Part shown: positions 3,263 through 48,443 of the stretch, in pieces
Position numbering within the stretch: position 1 is the first letter of the stretch
How the letters are laid out: each line of letters starts with the position of its first letter
Assembly (NCBI GenBank): GCA_964410165.1
Contig: CAYPFT010000002.1
Coordinates: 367-64,366 of the forward strand
Length of the DNA stretch: 64,000 bases
Direction: 5' to 3'
Source of the DNA: an uncultured Candidatus Saccharibacteria bacterium
Lineage (GTDB): Bacteria > Patescibacteriota > Minisyncoccia > Phycocordibacterales > CAIJYI01
Translations under genes and position numbers: made by a program
Notes under the pieces: model-generated
The model's input: the letters and a program-made list of their open reading frames with translations, nothing else
What the model was told of the DNA's origin: nothing
Databases searched by the model: none

Positions 3263-3421
3263 CGACGGAGGCATGTTTTTTTCGAGGCCGGCAAAAACGG
3301 CCGAGTTGGTGCCCAGACAAACTTTTTCGCAAAAAAATTTAGTCGATGGAAAGACTTCTCTGTTGCAGGCGTGATTGGAAGGCTCGTGTTGTGTTTTTTA
3401 AATAAAGATATTTCGTGTATA

Positions 3422-17000: not shown

Positions 17001-17279
17001 ATGCGACACATCCCTGAATTTTTTCAACCCATTTTCTGGTCATATGATTTCAGAGCTCTTGATGCCGAAAAGCACAAGAGAACCATCGTGGTTCAGACGA
17101 TTAACTATGGGAGGTGGAAGCACTGGCGATTTATCGCGGACAGGTACGGCAAAAACGGCGTTGCCGAGATAATAGCCTCCGAACCGGCAAGCGCATTTCG
17201 CAAACCAGCGCTTTTCTTGGCGAAGATTCTTTTTAGCGTTGAGAAACAAGCACATGCACTTCGAAGCACTCACAGATAA
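17001..17279 (+). CDS. Small protein upstream of AbiEii-like toxin; putative cognate antitoxin
   Basis: 92 aa, overlapping the start of the downstream AbiEii-like gene. No HTH recognised. Called on position only. Confidence 0.3.
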   Translation: MRHIPEFFQPIFWSYDFRALDAEKHKRTIVVQTINYGRWKHWRFIADRYGKNGVAEIIASEPASAFRKPALFLAKILFSVEKQAHALRSTHR

Positions 17280-17877
17280 AGGAAAAGAAATATTTCCGAA
17301 ACTCTCGCTGTTTTCGGGTTTTTATCTTGCCGGCGGAACAGCGCTTGCGCTTCAAATCGGACATCGCGTTTCCATAGACTTCGATTTTTTTACCGATGAG
17401 AAGATAAAAAAAACACTGCTCGCGAAAGCGGAAAGCATCTTTTCACCGAGCAGTCTTGAGATTTTTGTAAACAACTCGGGCGAACTCACTTTTTCCGTCA
17501 ACGACGTGAAAATCACTTTTCTTACCTATCCTTTTCCGGCGTTGCTTCCAAAAGTAAAAGTAGAAAAAGGCGAGTTTTGGCTCTTGGGCGTAAAAGAACT
17601 TGCCGCTACGAAAGCTTACACGATAGGAAGGCGAGGTGAACTCAAGGATTACATTGATGTATATTTTCTCCTCAAAGAAGGGCATACGACGCTTTTTGAA
17701 ATTTCCGAACTCGCGGAAAAGAAATACGGTGAAGCGTTTGACACAAGGCTTTTTCTTGAACAATTGCTGTATTTGGATGACATAGAAGACGTACAAATAG
17801 AATTTTTGAAAGACCCTGTCGGAAAAGAAGAACTCAAAAAGTTTTTTGAAGGGGAAATAGGAAAAATAAAGCTGTAA
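17254..17877 (+). CDS. AbiEii/AbiGii-family nucleotidyltransferase toxin-like protein
   Basis: FYLAGGTALALQIGHRVSIDFDFF matches the GG-TAL...HR-S-D-D-F signature of the AbiEii family. Confidence 0.65.
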   Translation: MHFEALTDKGKEIFPKLSLFSGFYLAGGTALALQIGHRVSIDFDFFTDEKIKKTLLAKAESIFSPSSLEIFVNNSGELTFSVNDVKITFLTYPFPALLPKVKVEKGEFWLLGVKELAATKAYTIGRRGELKDYIDVYFLLKEGHTTLFEISELAEKKYGEAFDTRLFLEQLLYLDDIEDVQIEFLKDPVGKEELKKFFEGEIGKIKL

Positions 17878-31990: not shown

Positions 31991-33400
31991 TCATACTTTT
32001 TTAACAATATCCTGCTCGCCGCGCTTGATGTCGAAGCGTCCGATTTCTTTGGCGGTGTGGACTTGAAGTCCATATTCGCCGAAATTGTCCGTTAAGAATC
32101 CGGCTATTCGATGGGCTTGTTTTTGGAGCGTCGGGTGGACGAACGGCGTTGCGCGAAGTTCGGCAAGGTAGACAAAAGCGGGTAAGTCTCCGGTGATACG
32201 GTTCGAGACACGGTATCCCATGGGGATATAGTATTGAGCGTCCAGAGGGGAGATATCGCTTAGGAACGAGAGCAAATCCGTTGTTTTGAGGAGTGCCACC
32301 GCCTTCTGCCGGATGTCTTCGGGAAGTTCATTGAGATACCACGGCTCGAATCCGTGTACGGTCGTGAGAAGCGGCATGCGCTGTACGACAGCCCTCTGTC
32401 GCTGAATATCTCGGAACGAACCGAAGTCAAGGAGGAAACGGAACCGAAGCGAAGATGCTTGCGCCAAAAATTTCGGGAGTTCGGTTTTTGGCGGTCTTGC
32501 GACAAGCACCTGACGGTGTTTATTCAGTTCGTCTTCATCTGTAAAGAGAACAGTTCCTTCGAATTCCGGACATTCGCCGTCAAATAAATAGTAATATTCA
32601 TGCATCCACATCTCGTTATAATTTTCCGTAGCCTCGTATCTTTTGTGTGAGAACGAGCTTGGGAAAGCTTCTCTGAGTGCCGATTCCATAGCTTCCGCGA
32701 CTGTCCGGACCTCTTCAAGCGGATGGTGGCGCAATATCGCGATTTTGTCAGCCGTTTGGCGGAGGTTGGCGTGCCACGAAAGATTGGTCATAGCGCCACC
32801 GGGAAGAAAGCTGCGTAAAATGTCAAAGGCTCTCGCCGCGATGGCCTTTTCATATTTTCCAGAATCCTCCTGCTCGGGTCTTGGAAACCGGAACCGCAAG
32901 TCTTTTTTGAGTGGCTCCAAAGATTCAAGATAAAACATCCGCAAACATTCATGAAGGTTTTTCGCCCATGAGAAACCGAGGATGTTAATAAACAGTTGTT
33001 CGGCGAAATCCACGTAGCGTGTCGAGACTTCTTGCCCCGAATACAAAAGCCAGTCTTGAATCGCTTTCGCTACGAGCATCGAAACGCCTTCAATAAAAAT
33101 GGTGACCGAACCGCAGTCGCCGATGGATTTGTGTCCGTAGCCGACGTAAAATTGCGCCATGAATTTTTCCGCGCCTTTTTTCGCAATCTCAACCAAGTGT
33201 TTGAGCACGCTTCCGGGAGAGCGCGAATAGAGTGCCTGAAGCATCGCTTCGGCTTCGGGGCCGATGAGGGCACCGGTGTTTAAGACGAGAACCATTCCGC
33301 CGTTTGGAAGCGGGCGGATGGCGTGTTTGAGTTTTTCAAATGCGCGATATTTTTGCCATTGACTGAGCAAAGCCGAGGCTTTTTGGAAATAGGAAATCAT
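31991..33400 (-). CDS. ThyX-like (flavin-dependent thymidylate synthase fold) protein, divergent and extended
   Basis: GHKSIGDCGSVTIFIEGVSMLVAKAIQDWLLYSGQEVSTRY aligns to the ThyX core GHETPFEH..FTFHVK..RQWFRHRIASYNELSGRY, but RHR is replaced by DWL. The second motif TNLSWHANLRQTADKIAILR is kept. 469 aa versus ~220-250 for canonical ThyX. Confidence 0.5.
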   Translation of the reverse strand: MISYFQKASALLSQWQKYRAFEKLKHAIRPLPNGGMVLVLNTGALIGPEAEAMLQALYSRSPGSVLKHLVEIAKKGAEKFMAQFYVGYGHKSIGDCGSVTIFIEGVSMLVAKAIQDWLLYSGQEVSTRYVDFAEQLFINILGFSWAKNLHECLRMFYLESLEPLKKDLRFRFPRPEQEDSGKYEKAIAARAFDILRSFLPGGAMTNLSWHANLRQTADKIAILRHHPLEEVRTVAEAMESALREAFPSSFSHKRYEATENYNEMWMHEYYYLFDGECPEFEGTVLFTDEDELNKHRQVLVARPPKTELPKFLAQASSLRFRFLLDFGSFRDIQRQRAVVQRMPLLTTVHGFEPWYLNELPEDIRQKAVALLKTTDLLSFLSDISPLDAQYYIPMGYRVSNRITGDLPAFVYLAELRATPFVHPTLQKQAHRIAGFLTDNFGEYGLQVHTAKEIGRFDIKRGEQDIVKKV

Positions 33401-34846: not shown

Positions 34847-36532
34847 ATGGTAAAAATTATTCTCGAAAAAGCAATACGGAGCATTCTTGAGGCGCAAGGT
34901 ATTACTGTGCCGAGTTTTATCGTGGAGAAATCGCCCACTTTTGGCGACTATGCGACGAATGCGGCACTCGTTTCGGCAAAAGAACTCGGAAAGAATCCGC
35001 GTGAAGTGGCGGAGCTTTTGGTTGCGGAACTGGAGAAGTCTGATGATGTGAATGAAGCGATTTTGAAAATGGAAATCGCGGGTCCCGGTTTCATAAATTT
35101 TTTTGTAAAAGACGAAGTCATCCAGAAGCACATCAGTGAGATAGTTTCTCTCGGCGCAGGGTACGGGGAAAACAAAACACTTGAAAGGCAGAAAGTGATG
35201 GTGGAATACACCGACCCGAATCCGTTCAAGGAATTTCATATAGGGCACCTCATGTCGAATGCGGTGGGGGAATCACTCTCGCGCATCGTGGAAGCGCAGG
35301 GTGCGGAGGTGAAGCGGGCGTGCTATCAAGGAGATGTGGGAATGCATGTGGCGAAGACCGTTTTTGGAATCAAGAATCAAGAATCAGGAATCAGGAATGT
35401 TGCCGACCTCGGCCGGGCTTACGCTTTTGGGGCGCAGGATTACGATGAACACAAAATGGAAATTCAGGAGATCAATAAAAAGATTTATAACCGTTCTGAC
35501 GCAGAAATAAATGAGATATATGACGCGGGGCGGAAAATATCGCTGGATTATTTTGAAACTATTTATCAAAAGCTCGGGACGAAATTCGACTGCTATTTTT
35601 TTGAAAGCGCGACTGGCGTGTTTGGAAAGCAGATTGTCGAAGAAAACACCCCGGCAGTATTTGAGAAAAGCGACGGGGCGGTGATTTTCAAAGGGGAAGA
35701 CCATGGACTTCACACGCGCGTATTTATAAATTCCGAAGGCCTGCCGACGTATGAGGCGAAAGAGTTGGGGCTTGCGAAAATGAAATATGACACATACCCG
35801 TACGATGCGTCCATCGTGGTGACTGGCAATGAAGTGAATGATTACTTCCAAGTATTGCTTCGCGCGATGTACCTCATTTTTCCAGAGCTTGAAAAGCGGA
35901 CGAAGCACATTTCGCACGGCATGTTGCGGCTCCCGACCGGCAAGATGTCTTCGCGCACGGGCGATGTGATTACCGCCGAATCGCTCATTTCGGAAGTGAA
36001 AGACATGGCGCTTGAGAAAATGAAAGACCGCGAGCTTGAAGGCAAAGAACAAATCGCCGAACAAATAGCCGTCGGCGCGATTAAATACTCCATTCTGAAA
36101 CAATCCCCCGGCAAAGACATCATCTTTGATTTTGAAAAATCACTCTCGTTCGAAGGCGATTCCGGTGTGTATTTGCAGTACGCGTATGTCCGCACGCAAG
36201 CCATTCTCCGAAAATCCGAGTTTACACAGGGTAGTCCTCAGGAGAATCTCCTGAGGACTACCCTTGGGGAAACTGGGGGGCTAAGTGAGCTTGAAAAACT
36301 GCTCTTTGAAGGATTGCCGAATGTGGTGAAGCTCGCGCACCACGACCTTGCTCCGAATTATATTGCTACTTACCTCATCAATGTTTGCCGTGCGTTCAAT
36401 GCGTACTATGAGCAAAACCCGATACTCGGAAATGAACATACGCCCTATCGCCTCGCGCTTGTGGAAGCGGTTGGTATCGTTTTGAGGAATGGCTTGTATC
36501 TGCTCGGCATCGCCGCGCCGGAACGGATGTAG
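34847..36532 (+). CDS. argS: Arginine--tRNA ligase
   Basis: Class I HIGH motif (HIGHLMSN), ArgRS N-terminal domain and C-terminal DALR-type anticodon-binding region; 561 aa. Confidence 0.9.
   Translation: MVKIILEKAIRSILEAQGITVPSFIVEKSPTFGDYATNAALVSAKELGKNPREVAELLVAELEKSDDVNEAILKMEIAGPGFINFFVKDEVIQKHISEIVSLGAGYGENKTLERQKVMVEYTDPNPFKEFHIGHLMSNAVGESLSRIVEAQGAEVKRACYQGDVGMHVAKTVFGIKNQESGIRNVADLGRAYAFGAQDYDEHKMEIQEINKKIYNRSDAEINEIYDAGRKISLDYFETIYQKLGTKFDCYFFESATGVFGKQIVEENTPAVFEKSDGAVIFKGEDHGLHTRVFINSEGLPTYEAKELGLAKMKYDTYPYDASIVVTGNEVNDYFQVLLRAMYLIFPELEKRTKHISHGMLRLPTGKMSSRTGDVITAESLISEVKDMALEKMKDRELEGKEQIAEQIAVGAIKYSILKQSPGKDIIFDFEKSLSFEGDSGVYLQYAYVRTQAILRKSEFTQGSPQENLLRTTLGETGGLSELEKLLFEGLPNVVKLAHHDLAPNYIATYLINVCRAFNAYYEQNPILGNEHTPYRLALVEAVGIVLRNGLYLLGIAAPERM
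36229..36263. repeat. 35-bp perfect palindrome inserted in-frame inside argS (GGGTAGTCCTCAGGAG-AAT-CTCCTGAGGACTACCC)
   Basis: Reads as QGSPQENLLRTTLGE within an otherwise ordinary ArgRS. A half-site GGTAGTCCTCAGGGG recurs at 48459-48473 just downstream of ileS. Confidence 0.6.
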
Positions 36533-36579: not shown

Positions 36580-36623
36580 CCCCTATAGCTTTTTCTAGCA
36601 TATGCTAGAAAAAGCTATAGGGG
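36580..36623. repeat. 44-bp perfect palindrome between convergent argS and spoVR-like genes; probable bidirectional terminator
   Basis: CCCCTATAGCTTTTTCTAGCATATGCTAGAAAAAGCTATAGGGG, perfect dyad centred on CATATG. Confidence 0.6.
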
Positions 36624-36712
36624 AGTTTGTTCAGACGGTACAATGATACAAAGATAAAAAAAGTACGCACCGTTTCGGCGCGCACTGGTCTAAAGAACAA
36701 ATCATTTCCATA

Positions 36713-38245
36713 TTATTTCTTTCCCGATTTCGACGGACATTCGGCGATAAGTTCAACCTTGTCGTCTTCTTTGACCGCCTCAATCCGCACCGGACACTGC
36801 CAGAGCTGGAAGAGGTGTTTGAGCACTTCCGCCGCGCTTTCTTTGTGGAGCGGAACGCGATTGCGTTCCGTATGCCGCAAAGTAAGCGTGCGGTCGTTGC
36901 GCAAATCAACGTTCCATATCTGAATATCAGGTTCGATGGCGCCGATGTCGTACTGACCGGCAAGCGCTCGGCGTACATCGCGGTACCCGTCTTCGTTGTG
37001 GATTGCATTCACAATATAGTTTGCCGTGTCGAGTCCCGGGTAGTCTATTATATGCCACAGCCGCATGTCGCGCATGACTTTCGGAGAAAGATACTGTGAG
37101 ATAAAGCTCTCGTCTTTGAAGTTTTCCATAGTGAACTTCATTGTGGCAAGCCAGTCCGTACCCGCAATATCAGGGAACCACTTTTTGTCCTCTTCCGTCG
37201 GATTTTGACAGATGCGCGGAATGTCGCGAAACATATCGAAGCCGAGAGCGTAAGGATTTATTCCGGAATAATACGGCTTATCCCACGTCGGCTGAAGAAT
37301 CACATTTGTATGAGATACCAAAAATTCCAGCATAAAGCCGTCGTTCACGTATCCTTCGTCGTAGAGATCGTACATGAGCGTGTAATGCCAGAACGTCGCC
37401 CACCCTTCGTTCATGACTTTCGTCTGCCGTTGGGGATAGAAGTACTGCGCAATCTTGCGAACGATGCGCACAATCTCTCTTTGCCATGGTTCCAGAAACG
37501 GAGCGTTCTTTTCGATGAAATACAGGATATTTTCCTGCGGTTCGGTCGGGAAACGCTCCCGCCACTTTTTTTCCGCCTCCTTTTTGATCTTTGGCACCGT
37601 TTTGTCCCAGAGGTCGTTTACCTGCGACTGGAGATATTCCGCGCGTTCTTTCTGCCGCGCCCTTTCTTTTTCGAGCGAAATCGGCGCGGGGCGCTTATAG
37701 CGATCAACACCATAATTGCTTAATGCATTGCATGAGTCCAAAAAGAACTCCACTTCCTCTCGCCCATATTTCTCTTCGCACTCCGCGATATAGCGTTTTG
37801 CGAAGAGCATGTAATCCACGATAGCATCGGGGCTCGTCCACTGACGGAACAGATAATTTCCCTTAAAGAAGGAATTATGTCCGTAGCAGGCATGGGCGGT
37901 GACGAGTTCCTGCATCGCGGAAGAGTTCTCTTCCATAAGGTAGGCAATGCAAGGATTCGAGTTGATAACGAGCTCGTAGGCAAGACTCACATCGCCTCTC
38001 ATGTACGCGCGCCTCGTATTTTCCGCTTCTTTTCCGAGAGACCAGTGATAAAACGATACCGGCAGTCCGATGGATGAATACCGATCTATCATTTGCTCCG
38101 CGGTGATAATCTCAATCTGATTCGGAAACGTCTTGAGGCCGTACTTTTCGCATGCGATCCGCCCAATCACTTCGTTTGCTTTTTGAATATCCTCAATGGT
38201 CCATGCGGAAGATTCGGTAATTAACCGTGATATGTTGTGTGACAT
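36713..38245 (-). CDS. SpoVR/YcgB-family protein
   Basis: 510 aa. Last gene of a prkA-yeaH-spoVR arrangement, and full-length for the SpoVR family. Confidence 0.75.
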   Translation of the reverse strand: MSHNISRLITESSAWTIEDIQKANEVIGRIACEKYGLKTFPNQIEIITAEQMIDRYSSIGLPVSFYHWSLGKEAENTRRAYMRGDVSLAYELVINSNPCIAYLMEENSSAMQELVTAHACYGHNSFFKGNYLFRQWTSPDAIVDYMLFAKRYIAECEEKYGREEVEFFLDSCNALSNYGVDRYKRPAPISLEKERARQKERAEYLQSQVNDLWDKTVPKIKKEAEKKWRERFPTEPQENILYFIEKNAPFLEPWQREIVRIVRKIAQYFYPQRQTKVMNEGWATFWHYTLMYDLYDEGYVNDGFMLEFLVSHTNVILQPTWDKPYYSGINPYALGFDMFRDIPRICQNPTEEDKKWFPDIAGTDWLATMKFTMENFKDESFISQYLSPKVMRDMRLWHIIDYPGLDTANYIVNAIHNEDGYRDVRRALAGQYDIGAIEPDIQIWNVDLRNDRTLTLRHTERNRVPLHKESAAEVLKHLFQLWQCPVRIEAVKEDDKVELIAECPSKSGKK

Positions 38246-39534
38246 TACGCATTCTCCTTTTTTTTGAAGAGTTCATGAAACACCGGATAGATGTCCTTTT
38301 GTTCTCGGATGAATTTCATCGCGAATCGATCTTTAAATACGCTCTCTTCGGCAATCCGCAGATAGTTCGCCCAGAGTTCATCTTGCTTCTCTTTTTCAAT
38401 CTGAACGTAAGCGAAGTAGCGGAGCACAGAAAGAATTTCATTTACCAACATATCTTCGCAGATGTTGGAATCAAGCGACCAGTTCTCTCCATCGGAGGCT
38501 TGCGCGACATATCTGTTCCAAGAAGAGTCGCTGTATCTTTCGTCAATAATCTCTTTCATAAGGCGGAGCCCCGTGGAGACGACCGTACCGCCCGTTTCCG
38601 TGGACTCAAAAAATTCTTTTTCGACCACTTCTTCGGCGATAGTGTGATGCTTGATGAACACCACATCGGTCCGTTCGTAATTTCGTGTAAGGAACAGATA
38701 TAAAAGCAAGAAGAATCGTTTGGCAATATCCTTCCTGTTTTTGTCCATGGAGATCGAGACATCCATAATACAAAACATCACTGCTTGCGCGGTCGGCTCC
38801 GGCACTTTTGCAAATTGCCTGAAACGAAGGTCCGAAGTGTCTATGAACGGAATGCCGCGAAGTTTTTGTTTGAGCAGGGTAATTTCTTGCGCAACGGCAA
38901 TAACCCGCTCCCTTGCTTTTTCGTCCGGATCAGGCAATGCCAAAAGCAGAGCCATCTCCCCCTCAAGTTTGCAAAGGAGTTCCTCCTTATCTTTTTTCCC
39001 GAATACGATGCGCCTTGCAAGCGATTGACGAAAGGAGCGGACAAGGTCGAGGTTCGTCGGATTTCCCGCGGTGGTTATGCCCGCGCGTTTCCATTTGTAC
39101 TCGTCTATGCCTGAAAAGAGCTCGGTCTTTATCATATTCGGAAGTTCGCAGTCCTCAAAATAGATTTCCAAAAATTCTTTGCGGGTGAGGTGAAAAACAA
39201 AATCATCTTCGCCCTCGCCGTCCGGACTGCCTTTCTTTCCGCCCCCGCTTCCTCCTTTCGGGCGGGGGATTTTGTCTCCTGGAATAAAGCGGTCATTGCC
39301 GGGGTGCACATATTCCCGGTTGCCGCCTGTTCCGTGCCGGAATCGCGGTTCTTGAATGCCCTTTTTCGGGATGGTTATATCTTCTCCGTCTTTATGCGAA
39401 TCGGTAATGCTGCCGATCCCGGCTTTTTTCTGCACCGCTTCTTTTATCCACGGTTTCATTCGTTCAATGAATCTTCCACGATTGACGTGGCTGCCTCCTC
39501 CTTGACCTCTTCTGTCTACAATAACGTCGCTCAT
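38245..39534 (-). CDS. YeaH/YhbH-family (DUF444) protein
   Basis: N-terminal Gly/Arg-rich region (RRGQGGGSHVNRGRF ... GGSGGGKKGSPDGEGEDD) followed by a vWA-like C-terminal domain. Lies between prkA and spoVR. Confidence 0.75.
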   Translation of the reverse strand: MSDVIVDRRGQGGGSHVNRGRFIERMKPWIKEAVQKKAGIGSITDSHKDGEDITIPKKGIQEPRFRHGTGGNREYVHPGNDRFIPGDKIPRPKGGSGGGKKGSPDGEGEDDFVFHLTRKEFLEIYFEDCELPNMIKTELFSGIDEYKWKRAGITTAGNPTNLDLVRSFRQSLARRIVFGKKDKEELLCKLEGEMALLLALPDPDEKARERVIAVAQEITLLKQKLRGIPFIDTSDLRFRQFAKVPEPTAQAVMFCIMDVSISMDKNRKDIAKRFFLLLYLFLTRNYERTDVVFIKHHTIAEEVVEKEFFESTETGGTVVSTGLRLMKEIIDERYSDSSWNRYVAQASDGENWSLDSNICEDMLVNEILSVLRYFAYVQIEKEKQDELWANYLRIAEESVFKDRFAMKFIREQKDIYPVFHELFKKKENA

Positions 39535-39622
39535 GGCATTTCTCCCATATTACTCTGTCTTTGAAAAAAATAGGGGCGGCGTCGAAACTTCGAACCACCG
39601 CCCCTAAGCCTTTGACCCCTTC

Positions 39623-41548
39623 TTAGGAACTCTTTCTTACCCGCAGGTACCATTCCGAAAGCAGGCGCACCTGCTTGGGTGTGTAACCTTTCGCTCCCAT
39701 CCGATTCACGAAATCTTCGTGTTTTTTTTGGTCGTCTTTCGACGCTTTCGAGCTGAAAGAAATGACTGGCAAGAGCTCCTCGGTATTCGCGAACATCTTT
39801 TTCTCAATCACCGCCCGCAATTTTTCGTAGCTCGTCCATACCGGATTTTTCCCGCTGTTTTTCGATCTTGCACGAAGTACGAAGTTTACCACTTCGTTTC
39901 GGAAATCCTTCGGGTTTGAAATGCCCGCCGGTTTTTCAATCTTTTCAAGCTCCGTATTGAGCGCCGTTCGGTTGAAACTTTCTCCGGTGTCAGCGTCTCG
40001 GTATTCTTGATCTTGGATCCAGTAGTCCGCATACGTGACATAACGATCGAAAATGTTTTGCCCGTATTCCGAATACGATTCCAGATACGCCGTTTGGATT
40101 TCTTTCCCGATGAACTCGATATAGCGCGGAACGAGATACTCCTTGATGAAACGGAGATAGCGTTCCTGCATTTCCGACGGGAACTGTTCCTGAGCGATTT
40201 GCTGCTCCAATACATAAACCAGATGCACCGGATTCGCCGCCACTTCAGTGTGGTCGAAGTTGAACACTTTGGAGAGGATCTTGAACGCGAAGCGCGTCGA
40301 GATTCCTTCCATGCCCTCGTCCACGCCGGCGAAATCTTTATATTCCTGATAGGATTTGGCTTTCGGGTCGGTGTCTTTCAAGTTCTCGCCGTCATAGGTG
40401 CGCATCTTTGAATAGATGCTCGAATTCTGCGGTTCTTTGAGGCGGGACAAGACGACGAATTGCGCGAGCATTTGGAGCGTCCCCGGAGCGCACGGCGCTT
40501 CGGAGAGCGAGCTGTATCTGAGCAGTTTTTCGTAGATCTTCACTTCTTCCGAAACACGGAGACAATACGGAACTTTCACGACATACACGCGGTCGAGGAA
40601 CGCTTCGTTGTTCCGGTTTCCTTTGAAGGTTTTCCATTCCGATTCGTTCGAGTGGGCGAGAATAATGCCCTCGAACGGAATGGCGGAAAGCCCTTCCGTG
40701 CCTTTGTAGTTTTGTTCTTGGGACGCCGTCAGGAGCGGATGAAGCACTTTGATCGGCGCTTTGAACATTTCCACGAATTCCATGATGCCGCGGTTGCCGA
40801 GGCATAATCCTCCGGAGAAGCTGTACGCGTCCGGATCGTCCTGCGAATAGTGCTCGAGTTTTCTGATATCCACTTTGCCGACGAGAGAGGAAATGTCCTG
40901 GTTGTTCTCATCACCCGGCTCGGTTTTGGAAACGGCGCGCTGGTCGAGCTGCGAAGGGTGGACTTTTACGACGGTAAATTTTGTAATATCTCCCCCGTAT
41001 TCGTGAAGGCGTTTTACCGCCCACGGAGAGGGGATAATGCCGATATATCGGCGCGGAATGTTGTATTCTTGCTCAAGAATTTCCGCATCTTCCGCCGAAA
41101 AAAGTCCGAGAGGCGATTCGTTCACAGGGGATCCTTTGATCATATAGAACGGCTGTTTCTCCATGAGCGATTTGAGCTTTTCCGCAAGCGACGATTTGCC
41201 GCCGCCGACGGGACCCAAAAGGTAGAGGATCTGCTTCTTCTCTTCAAGTCCTTGCATTGCGTGGAGAAAGAACGCGACGATTTTTTGAATGGTTTCTTCC
41301 ATGCCGTAGAATTCCGCGAAAGAAGAATATACGTCAATGACCTTGTTTGCATGGATGCGCGAGAGGCGCGGGTCAAGCCGGGTATCAATGGCGTCCGGCG
41401 TCCCGATAGCAAGCAATTCACGCTCTTGCGGTGTGGCGTAAGCGCTCGGGTCATTTCGGCAAATTTCAAGATACTCTTCCAGAGAATATTCTTGCGCGCG
41501 GGTTTGGTCGTAACGCTCCGTGAGGCGGGTAAATAAACTGGTGTTCAT
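39623..41548 (-). CDS. prkA: PrkA/YeaG-family AAA+ serine protein kinase
   Basis: 641 aa with Walker A LLGPVGGGKSSL and PrkA-type N- and C-terminal domains. First gene of the three-gene operon. Confidence 0.85.
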   Translation of the reverse strand: MNTSLFTRLTERYDQTRAQEYSLEEYLEICRNDPSAYATPQERELLAIGTPDAIDTRLDPRLSRIHANKVIDVYSSFAEFYGMEETIQKIVAFFLHAMQGLEEKKQILYLLGPVGGGKSSLAEKLKSLMEKQPFYMIKGSPVNESPLGLFSAEDAEILEQEYNIPRRYIGIIPSPWAVKRLHEYGGDITKFTVVKVHPSQLDQRAVSKTEPGDENNQDISSLVGKVDIRKLEHYSQDDPDAYSFSGGLCLGNRGIMEFVEMFKAPIKVLHPLLTASQEQNYKGTEGLSAIPFEGIILAHSNESEWKTFKGNRNNEAFLDRVYVVKVPYCLRVSEEVKIYEKLLRYSSLSEAPCAPGTLQMLAQFVVLSRLKEPQNSSIYSKMRTYDGENLKDTDPKAKSYQEYKDFAGVDEGMEGISTRFAFKILSKVFNFDHTEVAANPVHLVYVLEQQIAQEQFPSEMQERYLRFIKEYLVPRYIEFIGKEIQTAYLESYSEYGQNIFDRYVTYADYWIQDQEYRDADTGESFNRTALNTELEKIEKPAGISNPKDFRNEVVNFVLRARSKNSGKNPVWTSYEKLRAVIEKKMFANTEELLPVISFSSKASKDDQKKHEDFVNRMGAKGYTPKQVRLLSEWYLRVRKSS

Positions 41549-41823
41549 GGCTGTTCTCCTGTGTGTGGCGGTTTTTGGTGAAGCAAAAAGATTGCTTCAA
41601 TAAATGAAGTTTTTGAGTTGTCGAAGAACAACCCTTTCCTGATTAAAAGTATAACAAAGTTCATCTCTGCCGTTGCTGTGCACAAGTTGTGCATAAGTAT
41701 TAAGAGCCATTTTGGGTATAGCACCGTCATCTCGTTGTCTTTTTCCGTCCGAGAAGGTACGCTATAAGCAGTACGGGCGCATTCGTCCATTGAAAAAGAT
41801 TTTACAAAATACAGGAGGGAGAC

Positions 41824-43158
41824 ATGGGTAAAATTATCGTTCCGGAAAACAAACTTATTCTGCTCGACCATACTCGCGCCGGTCCGATGGCGGAGAGATT
41901 TTACGAATTTGCCAAGACGCGCTTCGTCGGACAGCCGCGCGTTGTTCGGTGGCTCGCTCAAATGTCAGAATCTATATTTCAAGGTTTTTATCCCGCAAGG
42001 GGTCCGTTGGGAAGCGTACTTCTGGTCGGACCTTCCGGTGCGGGAAAAACGCTTGCCGCGGAACTTCTCGCGTGGTTTCTTTTCGGCGACCCGGAAGGAT
42101 TTTCCCGGATCGACGGACAGGAGATGGCGTTGCGAGAAAATATCGCGCGTGTGATCGGCGCATCGCCCGGGTATGTCGGGTATGATGATCCGCCGATGAT
42201 TACCCAAAAAAGCCTCGATGAACCCGCATATTTGTGCATACTCGAAAACGCGCTTAACAATGCCACTGAAGGAGTTCGTCGGGAGTACCACAATATTCAA
42301 GAAGAACGGCGCGGACTTTTGGCGCACATTACCGGGCTTGGAAAGACAAAATCCGACCAGGAAGAATTGGCGCTTGCTGTGCAAAAAATCAAATCACTCA
42401 ACCATCGGACGAAAGCGCTTGGCATTCCCGAATATGACCGAAGGAAATATACATATATTTCCATACTTCTGCTCGACGAGATTGAAAGAGCACATTCCGC
42501 TTTTCATAATCTGTTATATCGGATACTCGACGAAGGAAAACTGCCGATCGTGTCAAAGAACCAAAATATGGGAAGCGGTTTTATTGACTTCAGGAGAACC
42601 ATTATTATTGCAACCAGCAATCTTGGCGAAGAAGAACTGAAAAATCTTTTTAAGAGTTCAAGCGGCCGTTCACTCGGGTATAGTTTTATGAGGCAGACGT
42701 ATACCAGCGATGAGCTTGATCAAGCAACTTATCGGATTTGCAACAAAGCGATAGAAAGCTTTTTTCCGATGCCGCTCCTGAATCGTTTCGGAGATAAGAT
42801 TGCCGCGAGGATACATTCTCGGGAAGAACATCTTCAAGTTCTTGATATTGAGCTGAACAAGATTCGGGATTGGCTGTTTGATCCGGAGGGATGTAATTTT
42901 CCGATTGTAATTCGGGTTGAAGACTCGGTCAAAGCATATTTGGCGGACGAAATGTCGGAGAGCCTCGAAAAAGGAGTTCGTTTTTTGCAACAAAAGCTGA
43001 AGACACATCTCGTTGATAGAATTATATCACTCAAGGCGACAGGACAGGTTTGCGCGGGAGACATACTCATCGTGTCCACCGACCCGATTTCGAAAGAGTT
43101 TGTTTTTCACAAAGAACATAATCCCACCGCCGCGGAAAAGATTATAAAAACCAGCTGA
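41824..43158 (+). CDS. Orphan Hsp100/Clp D2-type AAA+ ATPase (single AAA module) with an ~80-aa insertion between Walker A and B
   Basis: FVGQPRVV...GSVLLVGPSGAGKT (Walker A), SPGYVGYDDPP (Clp hallmark), ILLLDEIERAH (Walker B), TSNLG (sensor 1), C-terminal small domain with GVRFLQQ. No N-domain and no D1. Confidence 0.7.
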   Translation: MGKIIVPENKLILLDHTRAGPMAERFYEFAKTRFVGQPRVVRWLAQMSESIFQGFYPARGPLGSVLLVGPSGAGKTLAAELLAWFLFGDPEGFSRIDGQEMALRENIARVIGASPGYVGYDDPPMITQKSLDEPAYLCILENALNNATEGVRREYHNIQEERRGLLAHITGLGKTKSDQEELALAVQKIKSLNHRTKALGIPEYDRRKYTYISILLLDEIERAHSAFHNLLYRILDEGKLPIVSKNQNMGSGFIDFRRTIIIATSNLGEEELKNLFKSSSGRSLGYSFMRQTYTSDELDQATYRICNKAIESFFPMPLLNRFGDKIAARIHSREEHLQVLDIELNKIRDWLFDPEGCNFPIVIRVEDSVKAYLADEMSESLEKGVRFLQQKLKTHLVDRIISLKATGQVCAGDILIVSTDPISKEFVFHKEHNPTAAEKIIKTS

Positions 43159-43173
43159 CGTTTTCTGTTCCGA

Positions 43174-43202
43174 CTCGCCCGTACCATATGGGCGAGTTTT
43201 TA
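43174..43202 (+). terminator. Rho-independent terminator between the two AAA+ paralogs
   Basis: CTCGCCC-GTACCATAT-GGGCGAG followed by TTTTTATTG. Confidence 0.5.
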
Positions 43203-43306
43203 TTGTCGCAAGGATTGTTTTTTTGCCCTATCAGGAGTACTGTTTAGGGCAGGAAAGACAAATTAGTCCATTGAAACAATTTTTCTTAAAAATACAGGAG
43301 GGGAGC

Positions 43307-44659
43307 ATGGATAACCGCAACACAAATTTTGTTCGTCTTGATCATCTGAAGCGAGGACAAACAGCGGAGGCGTTTATGGAATTTGCCGGCACAAAAGTAA
43401 TCGGACAATCGCACATTATTAAAACTATCGGTCAGACGATTGAACAAGAGCTTGCCGGATTCAGCAATCCCAAAAAGCCGATCGGCTCTTTCTTTATTGC
43501 CGGTCCGTCCGGCGTCGGCAAGACATCCATCATTAAAGCGCTTGCGGAGTTCTTATTTGAAGACGAAAAGGCAATGACCCGTCTTGAGGGACAGGAATTT
43601 TCGGAGCCGCATTCGGTAGCGAACCTGAAAGGATCGCCGGCGGGATATGTCGGATTCGATGAACCGCCGAGAATTACTCAAGAAGGACTCGATAAATACG
43701 GGTTCAATGCGATCCTTGATGATTTTTACTCGCGCTTGTTTCCGGGAGAGGAAGAATTCTTTCAAGAGAAAGAGGCAATGATCCGAACGCTTGTTTCGGA
43801 GATAAATTCATTGACTCAAAGGGATGCTCAAACGGCGAGCAAAAGAGAATCCTGCATGGAGAGCATAAAGGCGCTACAGAGAGAACTTGCCGCAAGAGGG
43901 TATCCTCTTTATGATATTACGGGTTCTCGTTCCAAGTATATCTCCGTTTTCCTTATAGATGAAGTTGAACGGGCGGACAAGGCGCTTTGGAATCTTCTCT
44001 ATACCCCTCTTGATGAAGCGTATCTCCCCATTAAGGGGTATAAAAGATGGAACGGAAGTGTCGTTGACAAAATACGATTTAACAGCACTTTTTTCTTTGC
44101 GACCTCAAATGTCGGCGATGATGTTATCCGCGAACTCTTGAACGTCCAAAGCGGCAAAAGTACGGGTTTTAAGTTTCATCATTCGTCCGTTTCAAAAAAT
44201 GTCGCGCAGGAAGTTTACTCGTCCTGCAAAAAGGAAGTGCGCAGGCATTTTCAGTCCAGTTTCATCGGCCGATTTGACCATTTTTTCGTTGCACAGCCAT
44301 TGTTTCGCCTTGAAATCCGGCAGGTTGTGGACTTGAAAATTTCAGAATTAAACAAGCGGTTGGCGAATAAATTGAATTTCCGGCTTTCTCTTGATGTTGA
44401 TGAAAAGGCGCGCGAGTTTATTGTTGATGAATCTGCCGATGATCCGACTATCGGCGCCCGGTTGGTGGAACAAAAGATTAAGAGGCGGTTGACGGATTCG
44501 CTTGTTTCGCTTACGGCAAGCAAACAAATAACAGACGGCGACCGTATTTTCGTTCGTCTGGAAACGCTTCTTGACCGTCCGGTTTTGACCTTTTACAGAG
44601 AAGAATATGCGGCAAAACCGCTTTTGGTACAAAAAGATTTAGCCGGGGGCAGACCATGA
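43307..44659 (+). CDS. Orphan Hsp100/Clp D2-type AAA+ ATPase, paralog 2, with ~100-aa insertion
   Basis: VIGQSHII...GSFFIAGPSGVGKTS, SPAGYVGFDEPP, VFLIDEVERAD, TSNVG. Same architecture as the upstream paralog. The ~40-bp leader/RBS is duplicated (TCCATTGAAA...AAATACAGGAGGGGAGCATGG). Confidence 0.7.
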   Translation: MDNRNTNFVRLDHLKRGQTAEAFMEFAGTKVIGQSHIIKTIGQTIEQELAGFSNPKKPIGSFFIAGPSGVGKTSIIKALAEFLFEDEKAMTRLEGQEFSEPHSVANLKGSPAGYVGFDEPPRITQEGLDKYGFNAILDDFYSRLFPGEEEFFQEKEAMIRTLVSEINSLTQRDAQTASKRESCMESIKALQRELAARGYPLYDITGSRSKYISVFLIDEVERADKALWNLLYTPLDEAYLPIKGYKRWNGSVVDKIRFNSTFFFATSNVGDDVIRELLNVQSGKSTGFKFHHSSVSKNVAQEVYSSCKKEVRRHFQSSFIGRFDHFFVAQPLFRLEIRQVVDLKISELNKRLANKLNFRLSLDVDEKAREFIVDESADDPTIGARLVEQKIKRRLTDSLVSLTASKQITDGDRIFVRLETLLDRPVLTFYREEYAAKPLLVQKDLAGGRP

Positions 44660-44666
44660 TTTTTCA

Positions 44667-44712
44667 CCCTCTCCTTAAACTTTAAGTTTCGGGAGAGGTT
44701 TTTTATTTTTTG
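44667..44712 (+). terminator. Rho-independent terminator
   Basis: CCCTCTCC-TTAAACTTTAAGTTTC-GGGAGAGG followed by TTTTTTATTTTTT. Confidence 0.55.
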
Positions 44713-44864: not shown

Positions 44865-47800
44865 ATGCCTCAAAATTTTCTCAATCAAAAAAATAAAATC
44901 TTACAAAAATCTGGAACCGAATCCGGGGAAGTTATTCGTGGGCGAACCCTTGAAAAATCTAAAATCGCCGAAAGCGAAGAAAAAACCCTCGCTTTTTGGC
45001 GCGAGAATAACATTTTCCAAAAAACGCTTGAGGCGACGCGCGAGGGCGAGCCGTTTGTCTTTTACGATGGGCCGCCTTTTGCGACTGGGCTTCCGCACTA
45101 TGGGCATCTTTTGCAGGGGACAATCAAAGACACCGTACCGCGATACCAGACGATGCGCGGGCGATATGTCCGTCGCGTGTGGGGGTGGGACTGCCATGGA
45201 CTGCCGATTGAAAATCTTATTGAAGGAGAGCTCGGGCTGAAGCACAAAAAAGACATCGAAAACATCGGCATCGCGAATTTCAACGAGGCCGCGCGAAAAA
45301 GCGTGCTTCGCTACGATGAGGATTGGAAGAAAATCGTTCCGCGGATGGGGCGATGGATAGACATGGAGGCGAGCTACAAAACGATGGATTGGCAATACAC
45401 GGAATCTATTTGGTGGGCGTTCAAAACGCTCTACGACAAAGGACTTATTTATGAGGGATACAAGCCGATGCATATCTGCCCGCGATGCGAAACGACGCTG
45501 GCGAACTCTGAAGTAACGCTCAATTATCAGGATGTGAAAGATATTTCCGTAACGGCGAAGTTTGAGCTCGCAGATGAGCCGGGAACGTTCGTGCTTGCGT
45601 GGACGACCACGCCGTGGACGCTGCCGGGGAATGTCGCGCTTGCAATCGGTGAAGTTATTGAATACGTAAGAGTAGGAATTTGGAATCAGGAATTAGGAAT
45701 TAGGGAAACGTATATTGTGGCGAAAGAGCGGGTGGAAACGGTATTCGCAGGCAAGGAGTATGAGATACTTGGATTAGTGCATAATCCGGATTTGATAGGC
45801 AAAAAATACAAACCTGTTTTTGACTATTACACTGGCGACGAGAAGCTTCCAAACCGCGAGAACGGCTGGAAAATAGTTGTGGCGGAATTCGTGACGACGG
45901 ATACCGGTACGGGCGTTGTCCACATTGCTCCGGCGTTCGGAGAGGAAGACATGGCGCTCGGCATCGTACAAAATTTGCCGTTCATTCAGCATGTCGGCAT
46001 GGGCGGGGTTTTCAAACCCGAAGTAACAGACTTTGCGGGAATGCCGGTGAAGACGAAAGGCGACACGCAATCGGCGGATGTGGCGGTCATAAAATATCTC
46101 GCGGCACACGGCACGCTGTTTGCAAAAGAAAAAATAGAGCACTCCTACCCGATGTGCTGGCGGTGCGACACGCCGCTTTTGAATTACGCCGCGAGCTCGT
46201 GGTTTGTGAAAGTTACCGCGCTTAAAGAAAAGATGCTTTCAGAAAATGAAAACATTTCGTGGGTGCCGGAGAACATGAAGCACGGTCGTTTCGGAAAATG
46301 GCTCGAAGGCGCCCGCGACTGGGCCATCTCCCGCTCGCGATATTGGGGCGCGCCGATTCCGGTCTGGAAATGCGACAAATGTGAAAAACTTGATGTTATT
46401 GGTTCTGTGTCGGATTTGCGCAAAAACATCAAGCCCAAAAATCAGTATTTTGTGATGCGGCACGGGGAGGCGGAACATAATGCGACCAACACTGTGAGTT
46501 CGAAGCCGGAAAATCCAACACACCTTACAGAAAAGGGAAAAGAGGAAGTTAGGGTGGCGACGGAAGGACTAAAAGATAAAAAAATTGACTTCATTTTCGC
46601 GTCCGATTTCGTGCGCACAAAAGAAACGGCGGAAATGGTTGCGGGAATGCTCGGAATTCCAAAAGATAAAATCGTGTACGATGAACGTTTGCGTGAAATA
46701 AATGCCGGTGATTTCGACGGAAGACCGATTTCAGAATACCGCGCTTATTTTCCCAGACTCCTTGAAAGGTTTACGAAGCCTGCACCGAACGGCGAGAATG
46801 TCGTTGGTGTCAAAGTGCGGGCAATGGATTTTCTTTCGGAAACCGACGCGAGAGAAGCGGGAAAAAATATTTTGCTCGTTACCCATGAATACGTGGCATG
46901 GATGCTTGCCACCGGAGTGAAAGGGCTCTCAAAAGAAGATTCTTGCCGCGAGAAAGAGGGGAAAGATGATTTTATCGTAACCGGAGGAGTGCTTTCTATT
47001 TCTTACGCGCCGTTCCCGCACAACGCCGATTACGAGCTCGACCTGCACCGACCCTACATAGACGACATCGTGCTTCCGTGCAAATGCGGCGGCGATATGA
47101 AGCGCGTGCCGGAAGTTTTTGACTGCTGGTTTGAATCCGGGTCAATGCCGTACGCGCAGTTTCATTACCCGTTTGAAAACGAACAAGAATTTAAGCGCAA
47201 TTTTCCCGCGGATTTTATCGCCGAAGCGGTAGATCAGACGCGCGGATGGTTTTACAACATGCACGCGCTTTCCGTCGGGCTTTTTGGAGAACGGGCATTT
47301 AAGAACGTTATTACGACCGGACTTATTCTTGCGGAAGACGGACAGAAAATGTCCAAGAAGCTCAAGAATTATCCCGACCCGATGGATGTGGTAGAAAAAT
47401 ACGGCGCGGACGCACTCCGGTATTACCTGCTTTCTTCCCCGGTGGTTGTCGGAGAAGAGCTTCGTTTTTCTGAAAAAGGCGTGGACGAGGTGTACAAAAA
47501 GATTGTGATACGCCTGCAGAATGTCGCGGCGTTTTATGAACTGTATCGCGACGTATCAGGGAACAGTATCAGTATCAGGGAGATGACGAATGTTCTTGAT
47601 GAGTGGATTTTGGCTCGGCTCGCAGAGTTAGTTGCTGAAGTGGAAGCGGGGATGGAGGGTTACGAGCTCGACCGCGCGGCTCGGCCGTTTATGCTTTTCA
47701 TTGATGACCTTTCCACATGGTATTTGCGCCGTTCTCGCGACCGAATGAAAGGGAAAGAGGGAAAAGCCGGCGAAGAAGAAGATACGAATAATGCCCGCGC

Positions 47801-48443
47801 AACACTCCGCCACGTGCTTTTGGAGCTCTCAAAAACCCTCGCGCCATTCATGCCGTTTCTTGCGGAAGATGTGTACAAACGCGCGGACGGGGAGAGGGAG
47901 AGTGTACATTTGGAACAAATCACAAATCCCAAATCCCAAATTCCAAACGCAGACGTACTTGTCCAAATGCAGGAAGCAAGGAAGGTTGTAGCAATGGGAC
48001 TTGAAGCACGCGCAAAAGCTGGGATTAAAGTGCGTCAACCTCTTGAAACGATCAAAACAACCATTACATTTTCCGGCGGCGGTATCATTATTTCTGATTT
48101 ATTCGGTACAATAAAAGCTGAACTTAATGTCAAGAATGTTTTGTTGGGACAAGATAAAGATGAGTTGGATACCGTTATAACCCCAGAACTCAAAGAAGAG
48201 GGAATGGTACGCGAATTCATCCGCCACGTGCAAGAGCTTCGTAAAAAGGAAGATTTAAGCCCCGCCGATAAAGATCGCATACTTCTTGTTTCCACCGACG
48301 AAGAGGGAGAAACATTCCTTAAAAAATTTGAAGCGGAGATAAAAAGAGCAACGCTTTTCGCCGCCGTGGAGTATCGGGAACCAAATGAGGGAGAGCAGAC
48401 GAAAGTAGAACATATCTTATTCTCTCTCGCGATAAAAAAGTAG
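44865..48443 (+). CDS. ileS: Isoleucine--tRNA ligase carrying an internal histidine-phosphatase (PGAM-like) domain
   Basis: HIGH (HYGHLL) and KMSKS (KMSKKL) motifs, editing domain and zinc knuckles. Residues ~527-720 (nt ~46440-47030) contain RHGEAEHN, ASDFVRTKETAE, LVTHEYV: the RHG...H signature of the histidine phosphatase superfamily. The insert sits between the CDKC knuckle and DLHRPYIDD. 1192 aa. Confidence 0.85.
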   Translation: MPQNFLNQKNKILQKSGTESGEVIRGRTLEKSKIAESEEKTLAFWRENNIFQKTLEATREGEPFVFYDGPPFATGLPHYGHLLQGTIKDTVPRYQTMRGRYVRRVWGWDCHGLPIENLIEGELGLKHKKDIENIGIANFNEAARKSVLRYDEDWKKIVPRMGRWIDMEASYKTMDWQYTESIWWAFKTLYDKGLIYEGYKPMHICPRCETTLANSEVTLNYQDVKDISVTAKFELADEPGTFVLAWTTTPWTLPGNVALAIGEVIEYVRVGIWNQELGIRETYIVAKERVETVFAGKEYEILGLVHNPDLIGKKYKPVFDYYTGDEKLPNRENGWKIVVAEFVTTDTGTGVVHIAPAFGEEDMALGIVQNLPFIQHVGMGGVFKPEVTDFAGMPVKTKGDTQSADVAVIKYLAAHGTLFAKEKIEHSYPMCWRCDTPLLNYAASSWFVKVTALKEKMLSENENISWVPENMKHGRFGKWLEGARDWAISRSRYWGAPIPVWKCDKCEKLDVIGSVSDLRKNIKPKNQYFVMRHGEAEHNATNTVSSKPENPTHLTEKGKEEVRVATEGLKDKKIDFIFASDFVRTKETAEMVAGMLGIPKDKIVYDERLREINAGDFDGRPISEYRAYFPRLLERFTKPAPNGENVVGVKVRAMDFLSETDAREAGKNILLVTHEYVAWMLATGVKGLSKEDSCREKEGKDDFIVTGGVLSISYAPFPHNADYELDLHRPYIDDIVLPCKCGGDMKRVPEVFDCWFESGSMPYAQFHYPFENEQEFKRNFPADFIAEAVDQTRGWFYNMHALSVGLFGERAFKNVITTGLILAEDGQKMSKKLKNYPDPMDVVEKYGADALRYYLLSSPVVVGEELRFSEKGVDEVYKKIVIRLQNVAAFYELYRDVSGNSISIREMTNVLDEWILARLAELVAEVEAGMEGYELDRAARPFMLFIDDLSTWYLRRSRDRMKGKEGKAGEEEDTNNARATLRHVLLELSKTLAPFMPFLAEDVYKRADGERESVHLEQITNPKSQIPNADVLVQMQEARKVVAMGLEARAKAGIKVRQPLETIKTTITFSGGGIIISDLFGTIKAELNVKNVLLGQDKDELDTVITPELKEEGMVREFIRHVQELRKKEDLSPADKDRILLVSTDEEGETFLKKFEAEIKRATLFAAVEYREPNEGEQTKVEHILFSLAIKK

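Follow-up and report, generated by a model that had tools for sequence, protein, structure and literature searches.

Two single-module Clp D2-type AAA+ ATPases beside a PrkA-YeaH-SpoVR module in an uncultured Candidatus Saccharibacteria bacterium

The locus and its two AAA+ proteins

We analysed a 64,000-nucleotide stretch (hereafter the window) of contig CAYPFT010000002.1, from an uncultured Candidatus Saccharibacteria bacterium (assembly GCA_964410165.1), around a five-gene locus that lies between argS and ileS. Genes for PrkA, YeaH and SpoVR (the trio) occupy the minus strand and are separated by a divergent 275-bp region from two plus-strand genes, AAA1 and AAA2, whose products of 444 and 450 amino acids (aa) are AAA+ ATPases (Table 1). 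A sequence-only reading had proposed this layout, and both the open reading frame map and the profile searches agree with it. With moderate confidence, we regard AAA1 and AAA2 as single-ring Clp-type unfoldases that are co-regulated neighbours of the PrkA stress module.

All three trio genes score above the curated thresholds of the NCBIfam models for the E. coli type, and adjacent genes carry the AAA_PrkA plus PrkA, DUF444 and SpoVR domains of a three-gene PrkA-YeaH-SpoVR module. Near-identical trio proteins in public data are labelled 'Parcubacteria group bacterium'. The same five genes are found in the same order in two independent Logan assemblies, so the arrangement is not a mis-assembly. 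For AAA2, a longer reading frame starting at TTG 43223 was dropped in favour of ATG 43307, since the latter has a Shine-Dalgarno sequence and agrees with the N-termini of orthologues. The biochemical role of PrkA/YeaG-YeaH-YcgB has been unsettled for about 30 years. The trio acts as a unit, with cofitness r>0.7 in six bacteria (10.1101/072470), and in vitro PrkA showed hardly any kinase or protease activity (PMC13001217).

Both AAA+ proteins carry GPSGxGKT, GYVG, DEI/VER, TSNxG and GxR motifs, with the pore-1 loop GYVG at residues 116-119 of AAA1 and 113-116 of AAA2. Pfam AAA_2 is matched by each in two stretches at 93-94 bits (cut-off 27), ClpB_D2-small is matched in AAA2, and the C-terminal alpha/beta domain of the D2-small type is present. 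The best NCBIfam matches fall in the second AAA+ domain (D2) of ClpB, ClpA, ClpV and ClpK/G, at 98-181 bits against full-length cut-offs of 885-1900, and Foldseek ranks ClpC1/ClpC in ClpP complexes first, then nucleotide-binding domain 2 (NBD2) of ClpB, then Skd3. Neither an N-domain nor a first AAA+ module (D1) is found in the 444 and 450 residues, profile matches beginning at residues ~10-30. Profile searches and structure prediction thus bear out the Clp/Hsp100 D2 hallmarks and the lack of N-domain and D1 that had been read from the sequence. K75, D218, E219, T264, N266, R321, R386 and Y117, which include the Walker A Lys, the Walker B Asp-Glu, the sensor-1 Asn, the Arg finger, the sensor-2 Arg and the pore Tyr, are invariant across 42 aligned sequences. 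AAA1 and AAA2 look like active threading ATPases and not like decayed fragments.

A helical insertion between Walker A and Walker B, also predicted earlier, was recovered by two approaches. When AAA2 is aligned by HMMER with T. thermophilus ClpB NBD2, residues 28-125 and 208-416 align, and this split indicates an insertion of ~82 residues where ClpB has 2. AlphaFold models (mean predicted local distance difference test, pLDDT, of 86.6 for AAA1 and 90.0 for AAA2) place three helices in this segment, which in the AlphaFold 2 (AF2) model of AAA1 span residues 128-146, 149-171 and 176-198 with pLDDT ~90. The insertion begins directly behind the pore-loop helix, ahead of Walker B.

Since the best sequence matches are the D2 halves of ClpB and ClpC, the two genes might be fragments of full-length ClpB/ClpC produced by mis-assembly or decay. 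This is refuted, in keeping with the earlier reading of stand-alone ATPases: both are complete reading frames with a Shine-Dalgarno sequence, promoter and terminator, two independent assemblies agree, orthologues of the same length occur on more than 15 other contigs, the insertion is conserved across the family, and D1 sequence is absent upstream.

The earlier reading had denied both proteins a ClpP-binding loop. However, each AlphaFold model has one low-confidence segment, just behind sensor-1, and this conserved low-pLDDT loop aligns with GKSLGFLV of ClpC, contradicting that claim. The loop is strongly conserved inside each of the two subfamilies described below, and G281, R282, G285, Y286 and F288 are invariant in the AAA1 subfamily. 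Double-ring ClpC-type proteins from the same searches read GKSLGFLV, TPLGFSV or SGIGFTT at this position, and those named Patescibacteria and Staskawiczbacteria retain LGF/IGF. The ClpP-docking motif is [LIVM]-G-[FL] (e.g. PMC10149685). In the wider family, 57 of the 88 representatives that could be scored have an IGF, MGF, LGF or VGF tip (IGF 40, MGF 7, LGF 6, VGF 4; a further 7 read IGY). As most members carry such a tip at the docking-loop site, we infer that the family was ancestrally a ClpP partner, which most members still resemble, and IGF-bearing relatives would dock on ClpP. A paper on clpP/clpX in TM7x was set aside as evidence for ClpP in Patescibacteria because host genes are meant there.

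Family members and gene neighbourhoods

AAA1 and AAA2 are only 33% identical, a distance that also separates them from many other family members. Their orthologues are distinct, P0131-P0140 being 52-61% identical to AAA1 and P0002-P0007 50-58% identical to AAA2. Judged by these identities, the two are anciently diverged members of separate orthologous subfamilies and not recent tandem duplicates, and the idea of a duplication that included the regulatory region is not supported.

A family profile search covering 1.84 billion cluster representatives retrieved well over 100 single-module proteins, ~400-520 aa long, whose match at E<1e-85 extends over the whole profile and takes in the insertion. 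The distance from Walker A to Walker B is 88-229 aa in 78 of the 88 scorable representatives, compared with 66-73 in canonical D2 domains, and at least 78 clusters (50% identity) bear the insertion. The few named members are annotated 'AAA family ATPase' and come from Patescibacteria or unclassified bacteria. Thus, the two ATPases, which had been called orphans, belong to a large, so far nameless and apparently Patescibacteria-centred family. The suggestion of an undescribed family of paired genes holds in that we found no paper describing the family, although no literature search was aimed at stand-alone D2-only Clp ATPases; it does not hold for the pairing, which is confined to the window genome. 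The Clp/Hsp100 D2 core and the PrkA trio are known kinds. As far as checked, no description exists of a single-ring architecture that joins an I-domain-like insert to a docking loop, of a family this large, or of AAA1-type genes persisting beside two unrelated PrkA trios.

The family profile also matches giant multi-module proteins of 1018 to 7819 aa in 4-7 stretches, and N-terminally extended forms of 765-952 aa, in which a single stretch of ~420 residues at the C-terminus covers the whole profile (P0250, P0252, P0321, P0353, P0271 and P0324 are the proteins concerned). A search of genome contigs with the AAA1-type alignment returned only generic ClpB/ClpV-like loci (best 33-36% identity) and no AAA1-type gene in named genomes. 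This search was swamped by the P-loop pattern VGPSG[VA]GKT, and its 70 loci were reused as a negative control.

AAA1-type genes adjoin a PrkA trio in seven of the eight lineages of known context (the window, L084, L009, L010, L012, L085 and L091), the exception being L087. In L009, L010/L011, L012/L013, L085/L086 and L091/L092 the order is argS > prkA > yeaH > spoVR > AAA1-type > ileS on one strand (in L085/L086 and L091/L092 the contig ends upstream with spoVR as the only trio gene seen), while the trio of L084 is divergent from its AAA1-type gene, as in the window. In loci other than the window, AAA1-type is directly followed by ileS. AAA2-type genes occur singly in relatives, in L003 and L005/L006 without prkA and without AAA1, and in L007 in the order thyA-argS-AAA2-type. 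The proposed linkage to prkA therefore stands for AAA1-type but not for AAA2-type, and the paired arrangement is not repeated in relatives. Around three family members outside the AAA1-type lineage (L003, L005 and L008), no trio genes were seen, and among the 70 control loci (1.16 Mb) around generic Clp D2 homologues, none has trio genes within 10 kb.

The trios beside AAA1-type genes are of two versions. The co-directional trio ('type 2', PrkA of 692 aa) and that of the window and L084 ('type E', PrkA of 641-642 aa) are only ~25% identical, whereas the flanking argS and ileS are 81-82% and 77-80% identical, and the E. coli-type PrkA model accepts type E but not type 2 (93.6 bits against a cut-off of 576). 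Because two such distant versions fill the same slot in closely related genomes, the swap between types is, on this comparison, an in-situ xenologous displacement. A metagenome search with type-2 PrkA returned three loci only, near-identical to one another.

Two side observations concern these loci. At L007 3-224 (minus strand), a SpoVR relic comprising the C-terminal 74 residues, of type E and 69% identical to residues 426-499 of the window SpoVR, abuts thyA upstream of argS and the AAA2-type gene; in this genome the trio has apparently undergone loss or rearrangement. At L087 1892-2383, the gene downstream of AAA1-type (164 aa to the contig end) matches none of the window AAA2, ileS and trio proteins.

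The adjacency may be neutral synteny, inherited in a variable argS-ileS slot, with the AAA+ genes being housekeeping Clp unfoldases unrelated to PrkA. The same genes flank all loci, the content of the slot varies (a trio of type E or type 2 or none, and AAA2 either with AAA1 or alone), and the relic retained in L007 shows that rearrangement is ongoing. However, two unrelated trio versions have reached the same position beside AAA1-type, and a leader box (see below) is common to the AAA genes and type-2 prkA and absent elsewhere in 1.4 Mb; we consider neutral synteny quite unlikely. It is far less probable still that the AAA+ genes are anti-phage defence components. Weak partial PADLOC matches to PDC-M37B and DolB (E 1e-8 to 1e-16) cover P-loop or Walker B parts only, but the matched segments are generic AAA+, partner defence genes are absent, and the neighbours are housekeeping genes in stable synteny.

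Promoters, leaders and other features of the window

AAA1-type genes always have their own promoter and their own upstream terminator. An alignment of twelve upstream regions, seven from AAA1-type, two from AAA2-type and three from type-2 prkA genes, gives the pattern TTGTTTTTT, a 17-nucleotide (nt) spacing, GTAcGCT or GATACT, ~25 nt, and TTTTaGgGTTCaTTGAAA; the AAA1 promoter candidate scores under the stringency of the consensus promoter scan. An nhmmer model built from AAA1-type regions only retrieves the regions upstream of type-2 prkA (E 0.036, 0.48 and 1.3) and of the window AAA2 (E 0.07). These are its best non-training matches in 1.4 Mb, and the matched part is the box downstream of the -10 element. 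No further copy of the leader box was found elsewhere in the 64-kb window. Since this box, GTYCRTTGAAA, is common to the AAA genes and the prkA operon of sister genomes (type 2), AAA1-type genes and PrkA-YeaH-SpoVR probably form a co-regulated stress/proteostasis neighbourhood.

The leaders of AAA1 and AAA2, earlier described as near-identical over ~40 bp, are indeed identical at 38 of 44 positions, compared with 43-75% to orthologous leaders. Because the proteins are so divergent and each has its own orthologues, this likeness is not a remnant of duplication and indicates that a common trans-acting factor has been selected for or that gene conversion has occurred. The claim that each gene has its own terminator also holds, with an intrinsic terminator at 43172-43198 and a terminator-like hairpin at 44668-44704, the latter unflagged by the terminator scan because its loop exceeds 8 nt. 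Folded as single sequences, the leaders are no better than shuffles (z -1.2 to -2.4). RNAalifold yields a 6-bp helix between GUYCRU of the box and the start codon region, with 98% of cells able to pair against 22-57% when slid. This helix has one compensatory pair, in the two window genes only, its values are reached in 19-37 of 500 shuffles, and the L084 type-E prkA leader does not match it; pairing between the box and the start codon region is thus a minor possibility. An Rfam scan of the window found two tRNAs and nothing else.

The control region also contains the perfect dyad that had been proposed as an operator. The dyad is real, but it lies within chance expectation: the window has 39 perfect 7+7 dyads, i.e. 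0.17 expected per 275 bp, and L084 keeps 13 of the 15 positions with one arm broken. It is a candidate site upstream of the conserved extended -10 of prkA. Window-wide, the 39 such dyads (0-3 nt spacer) compare with 15.8 +/- 5 in mononucleotide shuffles, and many of them are probably terminators. E. coli yeaG is NtrC-dependent, and a sigma-54/NtrC reading of the dyad was considered for this reason; it was rejected, as the half-site spacing differs from that of the NtrC consensus and no -24/-12 element was seen in the region.

Table 1 Features of the argS-ileS locus in the window.
Feature	Position	Strand	Basis or remark
argS, left slot border	34847..36532	+	81-82% identical to argS of L009, L010 and L012
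Terminator-like hairpin with T-run, 3' of spoVR	36662..36686	-	Terminator scan
spoVR (ycgB-type), 510 aa, last trio gene	36713..38245	-	Pfam SpoVR and SpoVR_C; NCBIfam PRK11767 812 bits (cut-off 679)
yeaH (DUF444), 429 aa	38245..39534	-	Pfam DUF444 504 bits; NCBIfam PRK05325.1-2 542 bits (396)
prkA (E. coli YeaG type, 'type E'), 641 aa	39623..41548	-	Pfam AAA_PrkA and PrkA; NCBIfam PRK15455 1214 bits (576)
Divergent prkA/AAA1 control region, 275 bp	41549..41823	.	Blockwise conservation in alignment with L084
Variant box CTTCATTTATTGAAGC in prkA leader (L084: CTCCATTATTGAAGCC)	41594..41609	-	ATTGAA core common with AAA leader box; weak, by eye
29-nt block in prkA leader, inverted repeat GTTGT-N6-ACAAC	41612..41640	-	Identical in window and L084
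Candidate extended -10 of prkA, TGTTATACT (L084: TGCTATACT)	41648..41656	-	Inferred from sequence
Perfect dyad TGCACAA-G-TTGTGCA, TGCACAAGTTGTGCA (L084: TGCACAAGCTGTGTA)	41679..41693	.	~25 nt upstream of candidate prkA -10
AAA1 promoter candidate TTGTCT, 17-nt spacer, TACGCT	41735..41763	+	Aligned with 11 orthologous/paralogous upstream regions
AAA1 leader box GTCCATTGAAA	41785..41795	+	
AAA1 Shine-Dalgarno AGGAGGG	41813..41819	+	
AAA1, single-module ClpC/ClpB-D2-type AAA+ ATPase, 444 aa	41824..43158	+	Pfam AAA_2 in two stretches; invariant residues; AF2; Foldseek
AAA1 Walker A	42028-42051	+	
AAA1 pore loop GYVG	42169-42180	+	
AAA1 insertion, ~residues 126-208, three long helices, pore-loop helix to Walker B	42199..42447	+	AF2
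AAA1 Walker B	42475-42489	+	
AAA1 sensor-1	42613-42627	+	
AAA1 flexible conserved loop SSGRSLGYSF at the ClpC ClpP-docking-loop position	42658..42687	+	pLDDT <50; comparison with ClpC-type sequences
AAA1 Arg finger R321	42784-42786	+	
AAA1 sensor-2 GVR	42973-42981	+	
AAA1 intrinsic terminator	43172..43198	+	Terminator scan
AAA2 promoter candidate TTGTTT, 17-nt spacer, TACTGT	43215..43243	+	Upstream-region alignment
AAA2 leader box GTCCATTGAAA	43266..43276	+	
AAA2 Shine-Dalgarno AGGAGGGG (GGAGGGG)	43296..43303	+	
AAA2, second single-module D2-type AAA+ ATPase, 450 aa	43307..44659	+	
AAA2 Walker A	43502-43525	+	
AAA2 pore loop	43643-43654	+	
AAA2 insertion, residues 126-207, three helices	43682..43927	+	Structure model; ClpB NBD2 alignment
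AAA2 Walker B	43958-43972	+	
AAA2 sensor-1	44102-44116	+	
AAA2 flexible loop QSGKSTGFKF (cf. ClpC GKSLGFLV)	44147..44176	+	Structure model; sequence alignment
AAA2 sensor-2 GAR	44453-44461	+	
Terminator-like hairpin CCTCTCC ... GGAGAGG, 17-nt loop, and T-run after AAA2	44668..44704	+	Read from sequence
ileS with inserted His_Phos_1 domain, right slot border	44865..48443	+	

Several further features were observed in the window. A perfect palindrome with 20-bp arms (36580-36623) follows argS, between the convergent argS and spoVR. In ileS (1192 aa), the His_Phos_1 (PGM-like) domain occupies residues 529-691, an insert at about 46449-46937, and Pfam tRNA-synt_1 is matched in two stretches flanking it; L009, L010 and L011 exhibit the same architecture. 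A type II restriction-modification pair lies at 3371-5097, where an N6/N4 DNA methylase gene (3371-4330) overlaps that of an EcoO109I-type endonuclease (4315-5097). In a 1018-aa protein (11557-14613), a DsbD-type transmembrane domain is joined to two multicopper-oxidase domains; with a nearby heavy-metal P-type ATPase carrying an HMA domain (17994-20492), this protein may form a copper-handling cluster. A homologue of AbiEii-type nucleotidyltransferase toxins (type IV toxin-antitoxin / abortive infection) is encoded at 17239-17877. The 469-aa product of 31991-33400 has a Thy1 (ThyX) domain over residues 65-248 only; its gene neighbours, which form a nucleotide-metabolism cluster with it, encode a 381-aa dCTP deaminase-like protein, a thymidylate kinase and a dUTPase.

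Proposed function and relation to known Clp systems

As co-regulated single-ring unfoldases, AAA1 and AAA2 would each be expected from homology to assemble into a hexameric ring that hydrolyses ATP and threads polypeptides through a pore at its centre, which the Tyr of the GYVG loop would line. Since the insertion lies at the topological site of the HslU I domain, six copies of it would crown the entry face, and because the N-domain and D1 ring are absent, no part other than the insertion is a candidate for recognising substrates or adaptors. The conserved but altered loop tips, x-G-Y-x-F in AAA1 and T-G-F/M in AAA2, would dock on ClpP or on another partner. Each AAA gene would be its own transcription unit, with a TTGTYT-17-TAnnCT promoter, the GTYCRTTGAAA leader box and a terminator.

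A number of points weigh against this interpretation. Hexamer formation, ATPase activity and threading rest on inference. The loop tips LGY (AAA1) and TGF (AAA2) are non-canonical, and tblastn with E. coli ClpP found no clpP in the window and 22 related loci (280 kb). The cross-validated leader-motif matches are individually weak, and in the type-E prkA leader the box is present only as a loose variant. In L087, which carries the closest AAA1 orthologue (61% identical), argS lies directly upstream of AAA1-type without a trio. All AAA1-type loci fall inside one syntenic clade with an argS...ileS frame, and because this frame is common to all, the seven adjacencies are not seven independent observations and could be inherited synteny. 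Finally, the AAA1 proteins of L084 (type-E neighbour) and L010 (type-2 neighbour) are 73% identical while their trios are ~25% identical, which gives no sign of co-adaptation of AAA1 to a specific trio.

Direct biochemical coupling to the PrkA module is possible. In its strongest form, AAA1-type would be a dedicated fourth component that works directly with PrkA-YeaH-SpoVR, either unfolding or extracting a substrate marked or held by PrkA (itself AAA+/kinase-like) and YeaH, or docking a trio protein in place of ClpP through the x-G-Y-x-F loop. The adjacency survives both an orientation flip and replacement by a ~25% identical trio, type-2 prkA has the leader box, the docking-type loop is invariant in the subfamily yet off the ClpP consensus, and the trio acts as one unit while PrkA itself has negligible activity in vitro. 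However, AAA1 is always under its own promoter and terminator and does not vary with trio type, L087 lacks the trio, other family members (L003, L005 and L008) have no trio neighbours, and the lineage is narrow; such a component seems unlikely to us. The extended proposal, in which AAA1-type serves the module through a repurposed x-G-Y-x-F loop and a three-helix crown and the family is a new, possibly Patescibacteria-specific, class of Clp unfoldase, is similarly doubtful. If true, the PrkA system would be a machine that remodels or degrades proteins, and not a kinase pathway.

Under the favoured reading of co-regulated neighbours, the presence of AAA1-type beside the module through a whole-trio swap, together with a common leader element, offers a testable lead to a proteostasis function of PrkA, a system whose kinase and protease activities are disputed. 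A single-ring family in which a ClpC-D2 core goes together with an HslU-like insertion site and a ClpX-like IGF loop also broadens the range of architectures known for AAA+ protease partners in organisms whose genomes are very small. The trio itself corresponds to PrkA/YeaG-YeaH-SpoVR/YcgB in all three genes; to our knowledge, known PrkA modules have three genes and a Clp-like fourth has not been reported (the literature was not searched for one).

Among the known systems that come closest, the D2 module of ClpC/ClpA/ClpE shares with AAA1 and AAA2 the catalytic and pore-loop motifs, the D2-small domain and a flexible loop after sensor-1 at the ClpP-docking site (GKSTGF in AAA2, GKSLGF in ClpC-type proteins). 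In contrast to these proteins, AAA1 and AAA2, which would form a single ring, lack an N-domain, D1 and M-domain, add an ~80-aa helical insertion ahead of Walker B, and have LGY/TGF in place of [LIVM]-G-[FL]. Lacking D1 and the N-domain, they fall outside class-I Clp/Hsp100 proteins (ClpA/B/C/E/L/V), which have two rings. ClpB differs further: the ClpB-type sequence P0047 is without the longer docking-type loop, the corresponding segment of T. thermophilus ClpB NBD2 is 12 residues shorter, and neither D1 nor the Hsp70-coupling M-domain of ClpB has a counterpart in AAA1 or AAA2.

HslU (ClpY), of the HCLR clade, is a single-ring unfoldase, as AAA1 and AAA2 are proposed to be, and its large helical I domain interrupts the sequence from the GYVG pore loop to Walker B. 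The ~82-residue insertion lies at the same site, a topological analogy only. It has three helices in ~80 aa and not the ~130 aa of the I domain, NCBIfam hslU gives no match to either protein at E<0.01, and HslU docks HslV by its C-terminal tail and not by a loop. Skd3 (human CLPB) likewise has a single NBD2; however, it is a eukaryotic mitochondrial protein that carries ankyrin repeats at its N-terminus and lacks an insertion ahead of Walker B, and Pfam finds no ankyrin match in AAA1 or AAA2. The unfoldase ClpX forms a single ring and uses an IGF loop to dock on ClpP, but has an N-terminal zinc-binding domain and no insertion; AAA1 and AAA2 have no match to Pfam zf-C4_ClpX and reach 15 bits with NCBIfam ClpX (cut-off 359). 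ClpI of Actinomycetota, a Clp class found bioinformatically (Jiang and Schmitz 2023, PMC10149685), is a double ring with N-domain and M-domain in another phylum. Its sub-classes with and without the LGF docking motif parallel the split between IGF-bearing family members and the altered tips of AAA1 and AAA2, and it is the nearest precedent for a Clp class defined in this way.

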